Assembly (NCBI GenBank): GCA_051047955.1
Contig: JBPGPT010000015.1
Location: forward strand, 248,001-312,000
Direction of reading: 5' to 3'
Origin: Cystobasidiomycetes sp. EMM_F5
Lineage: Eukaryota
Length of the DNA: 64,000 nt
In this document: positions 31,201 to 40,259 of the stretch, in pieces
Layout: each line of letters begins with the position of its first letter
Position numbering within the stretch: the stretch's first letter is position 1
Made by a program: the position numbers and the translations under genes
The notes under the pieces: model-generated
Told to the model about the DNA's origin: nothing
Seen by the model: only the letters and a program-made list of their open reading frames with translations
Databases searched by the model: none

Positions 31201-33729
31201 ATTTCGCTTGTTTACTCTCAGTACACCAATGACCAATTTACCCGTCTGCAAGAGTGGTGGAATGCTTGCTGCTGGAAGATAGGGTGCAAAGAGTGATTTA
31301 CGCTGCTGCTGGCTTGGAGTGCCTTGCATCTGCTGCACGCCAAACGAGGGGACTCGAGAATGTCCTGCCGAAGCTCGGAACTGCGTAAGTTGATGGAGCT
31401 GGGCCTGGGCTTGCGCGAGATCAGTTACGTTGGTCTGCGATACGGGTACAGAGGATTGAGTGACAATGTTGGAGTCTGAGCATGACGAAAGAGTCAGTTT
31501 CGATTAGATTAGACGGACTCTGTATATGTTAGACTCACTGCTTCCCCATCCAGCAAGAGATCCAATGCTACCTCTGCTCTCTCGTCTTCCATGTCCCAAT
31601 GCCCGCTGAGCTGCATTTGGCGGTAGGTCTGCTGGCGACTCTGCAACTTCCATCGTCGTAGGCAGGCCGCCCATGCCCACTACAAACGGATTGTTAACAT
31701 CATTTCCAATAATGGGGGCTGGAGCATTCGTTCCCTGAACATGCATCTGCTGGGTTGGATTGTTCGCTCCAGTAGGAAACGAGAATGCGGAATTGATTGT
31801 ATTTACTGATCCATTGTTTCCTTTAACATTTACTGAATGTCGTCTTCCATGGCCTTTCGGTAGGATACTGCCTGTTGTCGACGATGCTGATCCTGCAGTG
31901 GCGGAGGGGAGTGCGAATTGTCCCATTGACCCAAACTGACCCATTGGACCTGTGCTCGCTTGAGCGGCTACAGACTGGCCGCGTCGATGAGCAGCTGCTG
32001 CAGCGGATGGAAGTGTGACTGCTGCTCCTGCTCGTGCGGGTGTTGCGGGAGCAGTAGCAGTAGCGGCCGTAGCGGAATTAGAGGTCACACTCGAATCAGG
32101 GAGAGCATTCCCAGCAGCAGCGATTGGAGAGTTAGCCATCCCTACTGCCGCTTGTGCAGCTTGAACTTGTGAGATGGGCGACGCGACAATACCCAACTGG
32201 GCATACCGCTGCATGATATTCTCCTGTGCTAGACGGAGTGACTCGAGTTCGAGCTGTACATTGATGGAAGCCTGCGTGGCTGCATTGATATCTGCCTGCG
32301 GAGACTGCTGTTGAGCAGTCGTAGCCTGTGCGAAGCGAGGTGGAACACTTGATGCTGCGTTTGCGTTTGCTCCACCTGGAGACGCGACATTTGCTTGTGC
32401 TACAGCTTGTGCTTGCTGCTGCTGCTGTTGTTGTATAATCTGCGCTTGTAGCAGAGTCTGCTGGAGTTGAAATTGCTGCTGCAAAGCCAAAGCCTGCTGT
32501 TGGGCTTGTTGCTGCTGTGGAGAACTCTGAAATCCCAATTGCTGTTGCTGCTGCTGCAACTGCTGATACAAGGCCATCTGCGCCTGCGCTTGCATGCTCA
32601 TATTCAGCAGAGGATTCGCACCACCCAGACCCATTGCCGCTGCTGCCGCTGCAGTAGAGGCATCCATTCCAGTCGCACCACCTGCATTGCCCAGGTTCAT
32701 TCCCTGCATAGCAGCGAGTAGAGCAAGGTTATTCATGCCCGACTGATCTAGACCTCCGGTATTATTCGTCGATGGACTTGCTGCATTTCCAATACCTGCG
32801 TTGAATACGTTGTGGTAGTTTTGCCATTCTTGTGGATTTGCAGCTGCATAGTTTGTATGGTGACCTGCTCCGATCTGATTCTGCGGAGTCTGGAGTGGAG
32901 AGCCAAATACGTTGCCTACTGTACTGGTTTGGGACTGTGACGCCTGTTGCTGTTGGTACTGCTGTTGTAGCTGAGCGAGGTAGGCGTTGCTGGAGATGCC
33001 ACTGTCGAATGAGGAGACTTGAGGAGTGACGAGTGCTTCGTGCTCTACCTCTCCGAGAGCCGACAGAGCGCCCGGCTGAAACCCACCTGCGTTGGGATTG
33101 GGCTGAAAGCCACCTGCGTTGGGATTGGGCTGAAAGCCACCTGCGTTGGGATTGAGGGTGGAATTGGAAGCAGAAGTAGCGCGACTGCGGGTAGTGGGTT
33201 GTGACGTGGGCTGTGAAGTGGGCGACATGACGTTCTTTTCCCTGTCGTTGTTGGTCGACCCAAACTGATTGGCGTACTCCTTTGTCGGTGTAGACGCGCT
33301 CGGCATCGACTTTATGAGTTCTTGGAGGGACGAGAGAGCTGCTTCGGTGCTGGCTTGGTTGGACGAGGATGTGGGTGTTCGGATGGCTATTGCGCCTCTC
33401 GATGACGGTCTCTGAGGAGTGGCACCGACAGACGACGAGGACAAGCCACCGCCGATGGAAGGGGAGCCGCGTCGATTGAAGGTCGGAGACGACACGCGCT
33501 GCCTCGTTGGGGTGCCACTGAGCGGGGATGTGAGGACAGCAGCTGGCGACTCTGGCCTCGGGGGAAGGGACGAGTGCTTTGACGGTGTGGAGGGGATGAA
33601 GGGCGCTGCGGAGGGGGAGATGCGCGTGGAGGTGTTGTTAGTGTTGCTGCTGTTGGCGGGGTTGTGGATGCTCGTCGATGACCCGTTGCCCGGTGATTGG
33701 GTAGTGGTCGATGGAGGTTGGCCAGCCAT
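28294..33729 (-). CDS. SSD1: Ssd1/Dis3L2-family RNase II (RNB) protein with a long Q/N-rich disordered N-terminus
   Basis: RKSLFAPYLP, GVLRVNKRNRSDAYV, PKIIWFKPVDKRVPL, RWPITSLHPFG, TIDPETARDLDDAL, GVHIADVS, EEFMLLAN and HYALNVPLYTHFSSPIRRYADVIVHRQL. Confidence 0.93.
33074..33154 (-). repeat. Three tandem 27-bp units encoding (NPNAGGFQP)3 within SSD1
   Basis: Plus strand ggctgaaa(c/g)ccacctgcgttgggattg x3, with one mismatch between units. Confidence 0.95.
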
Positions 33730-34314
33730 GGCGTCGATGGGTGCAGGGCTAGAACAAAGGGAGATGAGGGAAGGTCAGTGAGTGCATAGAGTGGGATTAC
33801 GAGTGAGTGAGTGAACGCTCATCCATACACACCTCTTAACTACAATGTAATGGCTATCACAAAGACAAGCCCACTCTACGCGTCCTCACTCTGCCGCCCT
33901 CCACTGATTGGCGGAGGCTAATGATGCAGTTTATGCGAGTGGGTAGTGGGTGGATGGCTGATTGAGTGAGTGTATGTAGATGCAAGCAGTGTGCTGACTA
34001 ACGTCCACCTTGGAGTCTGCAGTGTTCTGTGCATGTCTCCCTCGTGTATTTCAGCGTCTCAGGCACGCTCATGCAACTGCAACGCCGGGGGAGACTTGTT
34101 AATTGGGCAGCTGAATTCATAATACCATAGACTACTAGTCATTACTAGTCATTGATGCACACTACTGCAGTGTATTAGACAGAGTGTCATACAATTAACA
34201 GTCCAATCAGTATACACTGTCACTCCCTGCCTGCCTGCCGCAGCTCAGTCATACCCCGACTGCGACTCCAACCACTCTTTCAACACTCATCAATCACCCA
34301 CTGCTCTATCGACA

Positions 34315-36694
34315 ATGTCCAAGCAGGGCGAGATCCCATCAGCGGGTGAGTGGGCAGGAGATCATTGCCCCGGGTGTTGGGTATCGCAGACTGGCACCGT
34401 CGTCATGGGTTATGGGTCATGGGTCATGGGGAGGGAGAGCTAATGGTCGGATGGTGTGGTTGACTGCGCGCAGGCACTTCGAGCACAACGGAACTGTCCG
34501 AGAATACACTCGTAGTCGTACTCGGTGAGTGGGTGGGGCGTGGGCGGCAGCGGGCTGTCAAGAGTGCGAGATGGCTGACGGGCGGATGATTGAATGATTG
34601 ACTTGCTCGGTGGATTGGATTGCGACGCGACACTCGCATCAACCGCTCCCTCGGCAACGACTTGACTTCCTCAACCGACTGGCTCTTCAACAACCTCACC
34701 CCCACTCTCTGCCATCACAACACTTCATCCGCTACTACCACAGGCGCATCCGGTGATCTCGCAAAGAAAAAGGTGCACCATCTCAACCTCACCAGCACAC
34801 AGGATCAACCCATACTAACATCCCTCTCTACCCACAGACCTTCCCGGCCCTGTACGGCCTCTACCAGAATGACTTTCTCCCAAAAGGCATCCACATCGTC
34901 GGATACGCGCGCACAAAGATGGACGAAGCTGAATTCCACAAGCGAGCATCCCAGCACATCAAGGTCATTCCAGCCTTCAAGAAGAAGGTAGACGAGTTTC
35001 TAGGTGCTTGCTCGTACATTTCCGGACAGTACGATTCAGACGACGATTTCCAAGTACTCGAAAAGAGGCTGCAGGAGATTGAGGGGGCCTACTCCAACAA
35101 GGAAAAGACGAATCGCGTATTCTACATGGCTCTCCCTCCGTCAGTCTTTACGACGGTAGCGGAGAAGCTGAAGAAGAACAACTATACGGAAAAGGGAACG
35201 AATCGAATCATTGTGGAAAAGCCGTTTGGCAAGGATTTGGAGTCGTCTAGAGAGATGATGGGTGAATTGAAAGCCCTCTGGAAGGAGGAGGAGGTGAGTC
35301 GTTTGTCTTTAGTGGCGATCAGGCAGCACTGCAGTCGATACGGTTCTTTTCATCAGTGCTGACATCTTGCACTCTCTGCCTCTCGTACTCGTCAATGTCT
35401 TGTTCGTCGCGTCATCCGTCAGACCTTCCGTATCGACCACTACCTTGGTAAAGAAATGGTAAAGAACCTGCTCGTCCTCCGATTCGGCAACGTCATTCTC
35501 GACGCGTCCTTCAACAAGACGCTCATTGACAATGTACAAATCACCTTTAAAGAGCCATTCGGAACTGAGGGTCGAGGTGGATACTTTGATGAATTTGGCA
35601 TCATTCGTGACGTCATGCAGAATCGTTAGTTAGCCAGTCTCGTTTGAAACCAGAAAACGATTGCTGACATGGTGTGCCGTGTGACTTGCTGATCAGATCT
35701 GCTGCAAGTCTTGTCCATCCTGACAATGGAACGGCCTGTATCCTTCTCTTCCGAGGATATCCGAGACGAAAAGGTCAAGGTTTTGCGCTACATTTCTCCC
35801 ATCAAGCCCGACGACGCGATTCTAGGCCAGTATGCCAAGACTGGTGACAAGCCCGGCTACAAGGACGACGATACGGTCCCGAAAGACTCTGTCTCTCCCA
35901 CCTTTGCTGCAATTGTCATGCACATCAACTCTCCACGATGGGAGGGCGTTCCATTCATCATGAAGGCTGGTAAAGCGCTCAATGAGCAAAAGACGGAAAT
36001 CAGAATTCAGTATAAAGATGTAACGCAGGGTATCTTTAAAGATATCGCGAGAAATGAACTCGTCATTCGCGTTCAGCCCGGTGAAGCAGTCTACATGAAG
36101 GTCAATACAAAGATGCCAGGACTTGCTATGAAGTCGGTGCCTACAGAGTTGGACCTCACGTACAAGCGTCGATTCTCGGATCTCAAGATTCCAGGTGGGT
36201 TGCTTGACTTCGAGTTGTACATGAAGCACTAGCTAAAGAAGTGTAAATAATGAACCTCTGCAGAGGCCTACGAAGCTCTCATTCTCGATGCCTTCAAGGG
36301 AGATCACAGCAACTTTGTCCGAGACGACGAGCTCGATATCGCTTGGAAGATTTTCACTCCGCTGTGCGTACTCAAACTTCAGATGCGGGAGTCTCATCTG
36401 ACTCTTTTGGCATTCCTTATAGATTGCACTACATCGAAAAGGAGAAGCCTCAACCTTTGGTGTGTAATGGTCTGAAAATGATTACATGGCAATACTGATT
36501 TGACACGTCACCACCAGTCATACGATTATGGATCAAGAGGTCCAAAGGAGCTAGACGACTTTATCACAAAACAGTCTGGCTATACCAGGTATGTTTGACT
36601 CAATATCCCGGCTGGAGCGTGGCTTATTGTATATGGCAGAAAACAACAATCATCCTACAGCTGGCCTACGACGGACGCAAACCCGTCCAGCTGA
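34315..36694 (+). CDS. ZWF1: Glucose-6-phosphate 1-dehydrogenase
   Basis: [61 protein letters not shown] and YSWPTT. TGA at 36692-36694, followed by an open extension to 36769 (see findings). Confidence 0.97.
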
Positions 36695-37042
36695 CTCGGA
36701 GTGGAGCCATTCAAAGCCGTTCGCGAGGTAGAACCATGGAAGAAGCGTGTCGTTCGTGCCAAGTTGTAGGGTCAAAGCTTCGTTGACGACATTTTCGTGG
36801 TTATTGTAGTGGACGGAGGAGGAGAGCCAATTGGAATCATGCGCACATGGAACATAAAGCAACGAGATGAGAGTGAGATGGAGATAAATAACAACACCAA
36901 TTGGATTTCCCTTCGAGAGAATGGCTCCAGGATTAGAGAATGTGACGGTATACCACACTACTCAATGAAAGACTACTATACAAGATGCCAGTGTTGAAGT
37001 TAGATTTTTCACATGAAACAATGCCTAATGCGGTGCCCAACA

Positions 37043-39092
37043 TTACTCCATGCCCAGCCAACTTTTGACAAACTCAATTTCCCGCTGATGTATCTTTGCA
37101 ATCTCTGCAGGCTCTTTCTGTGAATCTATAGCATGCGCAGTCTGACTCCTTGTTCGCAGGCCGTTCTCATCCCAGTGATGAACTCCTCCTCTGATCAACT
37201 CGAACGGGCGTAGAAGCGTGCTTTCCCTCTGCTGGACATCCGGCGAATGTGGCGTAGCGTACAGCCATGGATCGGCTGATCCATCGATGAAGGCCTAGAA
37301 GTTTGCCCATTCGTCAGTAGAATATAGAGACGCTTAATCAGATGTCCCCACTATCCGGTCATTGGCCAATTGAAAACCACCATACTGGTTGATTGATGTG
37401 GTGTTTGGTGATGACGGGACGCCTACGCGAGGACAACGGTCAGCCCGTCCGTTAATGGACAAGTCATTACTACCCGTTGCTTACTCGCATATTTGCCAGC
37501 AGGAAAAGCTAGCCGGCATATCTGACTCGTATAATTGAGTGTAATGGACCTGCTGATTAGACTCGGGACATGTGCTGGCGGAGCGCTCTGCAGGAAACCC
37601 CATTCTAAGCCAGCCGGATAATCATATCTCAATGACTCGCGTTTGTATAGGTGGTGCAAACACGCACCGCTACAGTATTGCCATGTCCAGCTTCGCCATG
37701 TTTCGTTTAAGCTATGCTTTTGATATGCCGCAGCATCGAATGTACTGAAGCATTCCTCCAGCGTCTGCGGTGCTTTGCAGAAGCTCACGACATTGTCCCG
37801 GATGTATGAAGCATAGTTCGAAAGGTAGGATATAGCAGAAGCTAAGTGACCCCGATCAGATGCCAATGTATGCTGAAATACCTCTCTTTCTGCAAGACTG
37901 TCTATACCGCCAAGAAGATCCTGGCAAAAGTCATCGAAACCTGTTGAGCTGACTGCTGGATCCCAGTTTGTAGCTTGCCAGGCTCCTAGAGGATATGTCA
38001 ACAAGCTTGCAAAGTCCTCGTCATGACTGAGCTCCTCGACGCCGAAAAGGCGCTTCAACTTCCGTATCAGATCTCTCTGGCCAGTCTGCAGAACTGCGTC
38101 AACGAGGCTGTAGGGCATTGTCAGTATAACAGGAGAGGATTCGTAAGAAACAGCGTACGCGACGGCTTCAATCACAGCACCAACGCATGCCTGATTGGCA
38201 TGAAGGCGGATACCTTCGAAGTATTTCCAGTAGTCTTCGATGGCCTCTGTGACTGCCGATGAGGCGATTGCGCCAAAGACCACATCCGGATAGATATGAC
38301 GCAGCAGAGCAACCTTTGCACCTGCGTAGCTGTGCAATTGCACGACGTGCATCAGTTTTCGCGAAAATAAATGCAGGAAGTGATACTGACCTCCCACCGT
38401 AATGTATCCATTTAGCCGAAACTAGCGCTTCTTGGGCTTCTGATGATGTATTCGGAAACTGTGCATGCTTGGTGAAGTATGCGTTATCAGCAATAGCTTG
38501 AGCTGCCGTCAAGAAACGCAGATTGTCCGTTGACAAGTCAGGAACCGGCCAAGATTCGCCATAGTATCGATGTTCAAGGACGACAGAAAGGCCTCCTGTT
38601 GCTTCACTAGTGTTTCAATTGCTGCGTTAGTTTGCGTACGGCCAGTGGCAAACGCCCACTCACCTAAGAATCTTGAGGATACCGTGATCTAGGAAGGGAA
38701 GACGGTCTTGGCCCGACGTCTCACCACCATCTAGACAGAATACGGGTCCGCCTGGCTTGTAGAATCTGGCATCGTACCAGTACCTAAGCGGAAATGTCGC
38801 GTTATTCGTAGGATCAAAATGGTCAATGGGTACATCAAGCCATTGCGGTGTATAAATTGCGTGTGTTTTGCGGCTACGTGAAAACAGATTGCCCTTAGCG
38901 AAGTCCAAGGGTTCCTTTACAGACCGCTGTGCACCTGCTGGATGATATGACGCGATCCTGCTCTGAGAGATACCGCCATAGCCCTAGCGGCAATGCAGGG
39001 TGGTTGCGCAACAATGAGTTTGATTGTGTGGACGCTACAGCAGTACTTTGCAGTAGAAACAAGAAGAGAGATGAAAGCAACGCGATGAACAT
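37043..39092 (-). CDS. Secreted serine carboxypeptidase, peptidase family S28
   Basis: Signal peptide MFIALLSSLFLFLLQSTAVA. Motifs PIDHF, GGPVFCLDGGE, LEHRYYGESWP, GG|SYAG nucleophile motif, WRSWTWQYC, DGSADPW and GGVHHWD. Confidence 0.9.
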
Positions 39093-39171: not shown

Positions 39172-40259
39172 CTATGGCGAAGGTACAACGAAAGTTCCCT
39201 CTCCGACCTTTAGAACATCCCCGCCTACCGTAACATGCGTAGCATCCCCCGCCTCGTCTACTTCGACAGACCCATAGAGCGAAGATGGTGCACCGACCTG
39301 GGCTCCTTGCGCAATTGCGTATTTGTTGGTTGCGGGAAGGAGACGCTCGGCAGCCAACACCAATCCCAGTCTGCGTATCTTATCATAGTCAGCATTGAAT
39401 TCAAGTGAGCAGATTGTGCTGCACTAACGCTAAAGCTGCAGAGCCAGTAGCCGGATCTTCCGTCATGACTCCGTTTGCATTGAAGAATATACGTGCCTCA
39501 ATACGCAACTCGTCTGAAGATGAGTCCACTATACTGAATGCAGCACAGGAAGCCGGTAGCGTGTCCTGCCCAAATTGAGAGGGTAAATGCGCTTGGACTT
39601 CCTCGCTCAACGCGCAAATGGGTCCGTAGGTTGCGTTTGCTTGTCGGAGGGTGTTTACGTCCTTGAATTGTACAAACGTCCACGGTAGACCACAGCTCGA
39701 TCTTCGGACGAAACCAACTTGCGATTCTTGATCCTTGCTCAAACCCAATGCACTCGAGATTTTGTCAAGACCGACTTTCAGGCGGTCGGTCAGAAAGTGT
39801 GGCTTTGCGCGCATGTAGATGCGGGCAGATTCATAGGGAGACTGTGCAAGAGTACGAAAAGACACTTCGGTAGTGCCAGAAGCTGATTGTTGAATCAAGT
39901 CCTGCTTGCAGCCCGATAGATTCTTATGGAGCAAGGTGAAAGCAGTGCCTAGAGTCGGATGTCCGGCGAATGGTACCTCTCTCATTGGAGTGAAGATCCG
40001 AACATGGTATGACGATGATTCCACAGATGCTTTAGCTGGGAAGGTAGTTTCGCTCAGATTAAGTTCTGTGGACAGCAAGGTCAGTCGGAAAGAGAGCTTG
40101 AAAAGCTGGGGGATATTATTTACGGCGAGCCAATGTCTGGCATTGTGATTGTGAGAGTTCAGTGTCGGTCTCAAAGACAGCTAGAGGATTTCCACTGTAG
40201 GTATTTCCATTGTGAATGAAGACATTGACGATATCGTATTTGACGAGCTTAGCCGACAT
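39172..40259 (-). CDS. PhzF/diaminopimelate-epimerase-like family protein
   Basis: VNVF...GNPLAV, LNLSETTF, RIFTPMREVPFAGHPTLG, EDPATGSA and IAQG...VGG; contains introns. Confidence 0.9.

Follow-up and report, generated by a model that had tools for sequence, protein, structure and literature searches.

A candidate readthrough-derived peroxisomal isoform of glucose-6-phosphate dehydrogenase in a Pucciniomycotina fungus

Introduction

Cryptic peroxisomal targeting signals of type 1 (PTS1) that arise by readthrough of a stop codon were reportedly described in the basidiomycete Ustilago maydis by Freitag in 2012. Here we examine a gene for glucose-6-phosphate dehydrogenase (G6PD) whose 3′ end has a comparable layout. 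It lies in a stretch of 64,000 nucleotides from Cystobasidiomycetes sp. EMM_F5 (GenBank assembly GCA_051047955.1, contig JBPGPT010000015.1, positions 248,001 to 312,000 of the forward strand), which we refer to as the window and whose first letter is position 1 throughout. Behind the TGA that ends the main open reading frame (ORF) of this gene, a short in-frame tail closes with the tripeptide AKL. The presence of a leaky-type stop, a tail and a PTS1 at this 3′ end is confirmed, and from sequence we consider, with moderate confidence, that the tail probably marks a real readthrough-derived peroxisomal isoform.

The closest described systems come from U. maydis, where a UGA followed by CU is reported to suffice for efficient readthrough, with the two bases directly behind the stop mattering most, and where Pgk1 is entered with TGA CTC in Table S1 of Stiebler et al. 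2014 (PMC4207609). The same paper presents the pentose-phosphate enzyme Rpe1 with a readthrough tail that ends in RRPAKL and is classed 'Targeted' and validated, and the legend of its Fig. 2C describes orthologues of Rpe1 and Art1 as alternating between overt and hidden PTS1 (PMC4207609). As these passages portray them, U. maydis Pgk1, Tpi1, Rpe1 and Art1 share with the window G6PD the UGA-CU context, a short in-frame tail, a PTS1 before the next stop and the nature of the product, which is a basidiomycete enzyme of cytosolic sugar metabolism; they are also alike in that some species carry the PTS1 within the main ORF. The window differs from this set in that the cargo is G6PD, that the organism belongs to Pucciniomycotina and not Ustilaginomycotina, that the case is known from sequence alone, and that the hidden signal is unseen in the nearest relatives. 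The term 'glucose-6-phosphate' has no occurrence in Tables S1 and S2 of that paper.

The pathway itself has precedents. Zwf1, Sol3 and Gnd1 of Candida albicans have been observed in peroxisomes, according to a statement in a review (PMC3798809), and Kremp et al. 2020 report that U. maydis Pgd1 carries a hidden peroxisomal targeting signal of type 2 (PTS2) reached by non-AUG initiation (PMC7214817). The same article notes that in fungi splicing and readthrough both serve the same enzymes (PMC7214817). The U. maydis GAPDH isoform is made by alternative splicing. In these accounts, 6-phosphogluconate dehydrogenase (C. albicans Gnd1, U. maydis Pgd1) resembles the case described here in belonging to the oxidative pentose-phosphate branch and in yielding a minor peroxisomal isoform post-transcriptionally from a single gene, and it differs in that the signal is an N-terminal PTS2, exposed by alternative splicing in Gnd1 and by initiation in Pgd1, whereas in the window G6PD it would be a C-terminal PTS1 exposed at termination. 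Animal MDH1 and LDHB (UGA CUA/G, as listed in Table S2 of PMC4207609) share the stop context and the PTS1 that closes the extension, but they are other enzymes in another kingdom, with tails conserved across vertebrates, whereas the G6PD tail was not found in the relatives examined. In the literature searched we found no description of a readthrough PTS1 on a fungal G6PD, although subscription papers might mention one.

A leaky-type stop codon and a hidden PTS1

The 3′ end of the gene contains the following features:

36589-36639, + strand: last intron, 51 nt, GT..AG; a skip of 51 is seen in one contig of sequencing run X1 (see below)
36640-36691, + strand: last coding exon up to the stop; its first base completes a split codon and the frame runs from 36641
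36692-36694, + strand: TGA, stop of the main ORF and candidate leaky codon, read from the sequence
36695-36697, + strand: CTC right after the TGA, giving the UGA-CU readthrough core; read from the sequence, motif from PMC4207609
36695-36766, + strand: in-frame extension LGVEPFKAVREVEPWKKRVVRAKL, 24 codons of which CTC is the first, by translation
36740-36757, + strand: basic run KKRVVR directly before the tripeptide, by translation
36758-36766, + strand: GCC AAG TTG, or AKL, a canonical PTS1 tripeptide that fits the consensus in PMC3798809
36767-36769, + strand: TAG, second in-frame stop, adjoining AKL, read from the sequence

When the + strand was re-read, the TGA, the CTC, the 24 sense codons, AKL and the TAG stood exactly where the initial annotation, made from the sequence alone, had placed them. 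The main ORF ends in NPSS, and the extension ends in RAKL (KKRVVRAKL), with the TAG following at once. Basic residues upstream of a PTS1 favour binding by Pex5. The tripeptide, which had been called a canonical PTS1, does fit (S/A/C)(K/R/H)(L/M), the consensus given in PMC3798809. The description of TGA-CTC as a 'variant' context has to be given up, since U. maydis Pgk1 has TGA CTC and the strain list of the same paper holds a TGACTC reporter (PMC4207609). Point for point, the features of this 3′ end match a mechanism that was defined by experiment in U. maydis. Beyond the TAG, the same frame continues open for 75 more codons (36770-36997), which is probably compositional.

In the mechanism that we propose, most ribosomes would terminate at the UGA at 36692-36694 and release a cytosolic G6PD of 509 residues ending in PSS. 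Because CU stands directly behind this UGA, a smaller share of the ribosomes would insert a near-cognate amino acid at the stop and add the 24 codons up to the TAG. The extended isoform would end in KKRVVRAKL, in which AKL and the basic residues upstream of it should form a strong PTS1. Pex5 would then import this isoform into peroxisomes, probably together with normal subunits present in the same oligomer, and the imported G6PD would make NADPH there. In this fungus we infer the readthrough, the import of the tail and its physiological role.

Gene model, placement and transcript evidence

The G6PD gene occupies 34315-36694 on the + strand, from ATG to TGA, in ten exons that encode 509 residues:

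34315-34345, 34474-34524, 34744-34772, 34838-35293 and 35423-35624, + strand: exons 1-5
35697-36194, 36264-36363, 36423-36459, 36518-36588 and 36640-36694, + strand: exons 6-10

Each of the nine introns begins with GT and ends with AG, and the reading frame is unbroken across the exons. Exon 4 matches the Pfam domain G6PD_N (PF00479, 2.5e-41) and exon 6 matches G6PD_C (PF02781, 3.6e-56); with both domains in place, the product is glucose-6-phosphate dehydrogenase. The gene, from a Pucciniomycotina fungus, looks single-copy.

A search with exon 6 returned 3567 homologues, led by JGI proteins at 93, 90 and 87% identity and followed by proteins of Rhodosporidiobolus, Mixia, a Cyphobasidiales metagenome-assembled genome (MAG), Rhodotorula and rusts; the top-ranking homologues that bear a name are G6PDs of Pucciniomycotina. 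In a maximum-likelihood tree of 42 rows, drawn from P0002-P0044 together with P0076, P0099 and P0113 after dropping sequences of fewer than 430 or more than 600 residues, the window G6PD is sister, with support 91/99, to the metatranscriptome proteins P0002 and P0003 and the Cyphobasidiales MAG protein P0009. With P0002 it shares 85% identity over 505 columns. Tree and identity together indicate that the source of the gene is a Pucciniomycotina fungus near Cystobasidiomycetes.

Transcript-like sequence came from run X1, whose kind is a guess, none of the listed runs being recorded as RNA. One X1 contig (342 nt, depth 3.4) joins exactly across 36195-36263, 36364-36422, 36460-36517 and 36589-36639, all with GT..AG ends; exact joins at the four last introns imply that X1 contains spliced, RNA-derived sequence of the same species or a close strain. 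This contig uses the acceptor that starts the last exon at 36640 and not the AG at 36659-36660, an alternative acceptor that would start the exon 21 nt later and thus, as had been pointed out, in the same frame. A second X1 contig (151 nt, depth 3) covers 36685-36836 without a joint, running over the TGA, the tail and the TAG and 67 nt beyond. It departs from the window by five differences and one gap, and three of the differences have positions. Within the tail the sole positioned change is 36752 G>A, a conservative replacement of Val by Ile; past the TAG, 36804 and 36806 are changed and there is a 1-nt deletion at 36803. No positioned difference falls at 36692-36694. The contigs carry no information on RNA ends. 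Runs X4, X5 and X6 yielded only conserved-exon pieces of other organisms, left the 3′ end without cover and are not used as evidence.

A probable loss of an overt signal

We counted C-termini over 120 homologues from the exon 6 search (P0002-P0121). An xWP tail is present in 105 of them, which together with the Pfam matches bears out the identification of the gene as a G6PD with an xWP C-terminus, and 97 of these 105 end in L. The endings are ASL (22), SNL (19), SVL (15), ANL (8), AAL (7), NKL (5), SAL (5) and others, and a canonical PTS1 tripeptide closes the main ORF in none of the 105. The conserved C-terminal xxL of fungal G6PD suggests a widespread weak PTS1.

The sister clade ends in WPTTDVNKL in P0002 and P0009 and in NKV in P0003/L002 and L003, where L002 and L003 are DNA loci from a metagenome scan described below; at the place of the last exon the relatives read K/TQxxxYxWPTTDVNKL or NKV. 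The G6PD ORF of the window ends in NPSS and nearly all of its homologues with the xWP tail in xxL, so that the hidden PTS1 would replace an overt one that has been lost, much as in the Rpe1 and Art1 orthologues of PMC4207609, and such a loss makes sense as an evolutionary setting for a hidden signal. Fungal G6PD proteins with overt PTS1-like ends (WPTTDVNKL, SNL, ASL, SVL) are thus the same protein with the same presumed destination, but their ends are constitutive and non-canonical, whereas the window G6PD ends in PSS and has a canonical AKL behind the stop.

The G6PD C-terminus evolves fast in this clade. A separate arrangement is seen in L001:2515-2670 and in P0004, where a charged tail follows WPVTSL within the main ORF, with no intervening stop (…DQVNKEDGDKDTQMKSP; …GKGPGSPESDEEMKDASK).

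Chance or selected signal

The alternative that survives best is chance. On this account the stop is followed by 75 nt of plain 3′ untranslated region in which the open frame and its final AKL-TAG have come about by accident, and whatever protein readthrough yields is rare noise with no function under selection. We regard this as unlikely, though well short of negligible.

To weigh it, we took all stop-to-stop intervals in the six frames of the window (n=4362). A canonical PTS1 end ([SAC][KRH][LM]) occurs in 17 of them and a TGA-CT start in 162, and a single interval, the G6PD tail, has both. The product of the two frequencies is about 1.4e-4 per stop, and a chance origin of the combination is unlikely. 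The open length of the tail is uninformative, since 39% of the intervals are open for at least 24 codons, which is what an accidental tail would need. That the finding was drawn from a very large scan, where rare coincidences turn up, also favours chance, as does a report, cited in PMC7214817, that readthrough is generally non-adaptive.

A number of results weigh against a functional isoform. RNA cover of the tail consists of one depth-3 contig, which comes from a run of guessed kind, sets in 7 nt ahead of the TGA and has two of its five differences unplaced. When the G6PD coding sequence was used to train a log-odds score of codon usage, the tail obtained +5.6 bits in frame, a value matched by 1.2% of 828 stop-free non-coding windows, and, in a first version of the score, -23.5 and -16.7 in the two other frames; however, the 72 nt past the TAG reach +5.5 bits in the same frame, equal to the tail. 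The open stretch behind the TAG is thus as coding-like at its start as the tail itself, and we dropped codon usage as unspecific. The RNA fold after the G6PD stop is nothing unusual (z 0.18), and the literature searched yielded no test of UGA-CU readthrough in Pucciniomycotina.

Comparison with relatives adds to these points. The metagenome scan gave 80 loci, in 25 of which the C-terminus was readable by script. Ten of these 25 stop at TGA, and TGA-CT is found only in L002 and L003 (TGA CTA), the nearest DNA relatives obtained, which are 90% identical in exon 6; a canonical PTS1 closes the in-frame extension in none of the 25. In L002:1615-1821 and L003:981-1202 the sequence reads ...TDVNKV, TGA CTA and then 67 and 72 open codons. 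These tails are acidic/basic and of low complexity, end in SKRAKVE and SKRAKMG, and hold no PTS1 in any frame. The conservation test that had been proposed for related species therefore came out divided in these nearest relatives, none of which is of the same genus: the TGA-CT context recurs in L002 and L003, and the in-frame PTS1 does not.

The tails of L002 and L003 look unconstrained at the protein level. Their first ~20 nt past the stop are nearly identical, but over the tails as a whole there are 23 non-synonymous against 8 synonymous codon differences, spread over the codon positions as 13/15/19, against 11/2/68 in the coding sequence upstream, where 68 of 81 fall on the third position. 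The tails are purine-rich, and their other frames are largely open too. At the DNA level the tail of the window has no credible alignment past the stop with L002 or L003, and in the alignment of the three genes the three TGAs do not share a single column.

Nor did the tail find a homologue elsewhere. A search of 5.8 billion clusters with the readthrough peptide, its TGA translated as W, found none: 'longer' lengths gave one candidate, with none at E <= 10, and 'near' lengths gave none. With HMMER, the sole match to the readthrough peptide among 1.84 billion representatives was P0122.

We rejected P0122 as a homologue of the tail. It is a protein of 1710 residues with tandem repeats of a DCNPADTLGVDPAV-type unit, unrelated to G6PD, and its E-value of 2.1e-17 sums chance matches over 11 stretches. 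The case is a reminder that multi-stretch E-values mislead for short queries.

Against chance stand, besides the joint probability, the observation that nearly all orthologues end in a PTS1-like xxL that the window G6PD is without, and the known cryptic peroxisomal isoforms of the pathway. Moreover, UGA-CU is probably leaky with or without selection, so that some AKL-tagged G6PD would be made anyway. All the checks that we ran are compatible with a readthrough-derived PTS1, which is the explanation that we favour. Of the interpretation put forward in the initial annotation, the stop context, the AKL and the exclusion of splicing (below) have held, and the 'variant' label and the expectation of a hidden PTS1 in the nearest relatives have not.

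Splicing and a false stop as improbable alternatives

A second way to reach the AKL end would be alternative splicing, as in U. maydis GAPDH or in the rust-type G6PD described below. Both routes are known in fungi for the same enzymes, as stated in PMC7214817, and the rust-type contig L004 reaches its SKL end through the removal of 40 nt. To examine this for the window, we listed all GTs in exon 9 and onward as far as the TGA and paired each of them with the eight AGs that lie before the TAG and behind the TGA. No GT..AG pair that removes the TGA lands in the AKL frame from the donor at 36589 or from the one at 36685, which is the only GT of the last exon. The AKL frame is reached by three pairs, all with their donor at 36540, and each of them would cost the protein its conserved C-terminal segment GPKELDDF...WP. 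Readthrough is thus left as the only sensible route to AKL, and the earlier statement that splice choice does not bypass the stop is upheld by the enumeration. In the X1 contigs, whose depth is low, splicing is normal and the tail is left unspliced. Taken together, we consider a splice-derived AKL end highly improbable.

A third possibility is that the TGA arose as an error of the assembly, or is a nonsense change confined to this strain, and that the true G6PD ends constitutively in AKL. We consider this just as improbable. In its favour, L001 and P0004 do have a C-terminal tail that continues the main ORF past the WP motif without a stop, and the X1 contig begins close to the TGA and has two unplaced differences. 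Against it, that contig has no listed difference at 36692-36694, cytosolic G6PD would be depleted if a strong PTS1 were present constitutively, and none of the 105 homologues has a canonical end.

Rust-type G6PD

In L004:1693-1806, a cDNA-like contig of a rust-type G6PD, the ORF ends in GYKSV-TAA. A 40-nt GT..AG stretch (~1704-1743) contains this TAA, and once it is removed the frame reads SPILGFSDSASPHQPDGSKL-TGA, ending in a canonical PTS1 (SKL). Among rust gene models, Puccinia striiformis ends in GPKL and Melampsora in PVKL, and two other rust-type proteins end in WPVQPAN and WPVQSARS. Judging from these sequences, rust G6PD seems to be made as isoforms with and without a PTS1 through splicing, that is, with a splice-dependent cryptic PTS1. 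We read the rust case as a hint, a second and independent one, of a hidden G6PD PTS1 in Pucciniomycotina.

Genomic neighbourhood

Downstream of the G6PD gene and convergent with it lie an exon with a Peptidase_S28 match (37423-38421, - strand, 1e-07) and a gene for a PhzF-like protein (39401-40180, - strand, 1.9e-26). Upstream, 31504-33774 on the - strand is an open frame of 756 residues with no Pfam match.

Discussion

The readthrough tail of the window G6PD and the splice-dependent ends of rust G6PD can be joined in a broader picture, which we put forward only tentatively and hold to be doubtful. Peroxisomal G6PD would be an old and near-universal trait of fungi, served by the weak xxL, and would have been rebuilt more than once in Pucciniomycotina as a hidden strong PTS1. 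Here this would have happened through UGA-CU readthrough (PSS-TGA-...RAKL), and in rusts through the retained 40-nt stretch (KSV-stop versus ...GSKL). The peroxisomal share of oxidative pentose-phosphate flux would then be set post-transcriptionally and could be regulated.

The principle of a readthrough-derived PTS1 is already known; what is new here is the cargo, G6PD, and the subphylum, Pucciniomycotina. If the readthrough isoform is real, G6PD would take its place beside Pgk1, Tpi1, GAPDH, Rpe1 and Pgd1 among the enzymes of fungal sugar metabolism that have a cryptic peroxisomal isoform, and the peroxisomes of a Pucciniomycotina fungus would house the step that opens the pentose-phosphate pathway and produces NADPH. 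The UGA-CU readthrough rule would reach a third basidiomycete subphylum, and the annotation of G6PD models in this group should then include the readthrough isoform. The overt NKL of the sister clade, the hidden AKL of the window and the splice-dependent SKL of rusts would together represent dual targeting that was kept while its mechanism changed.

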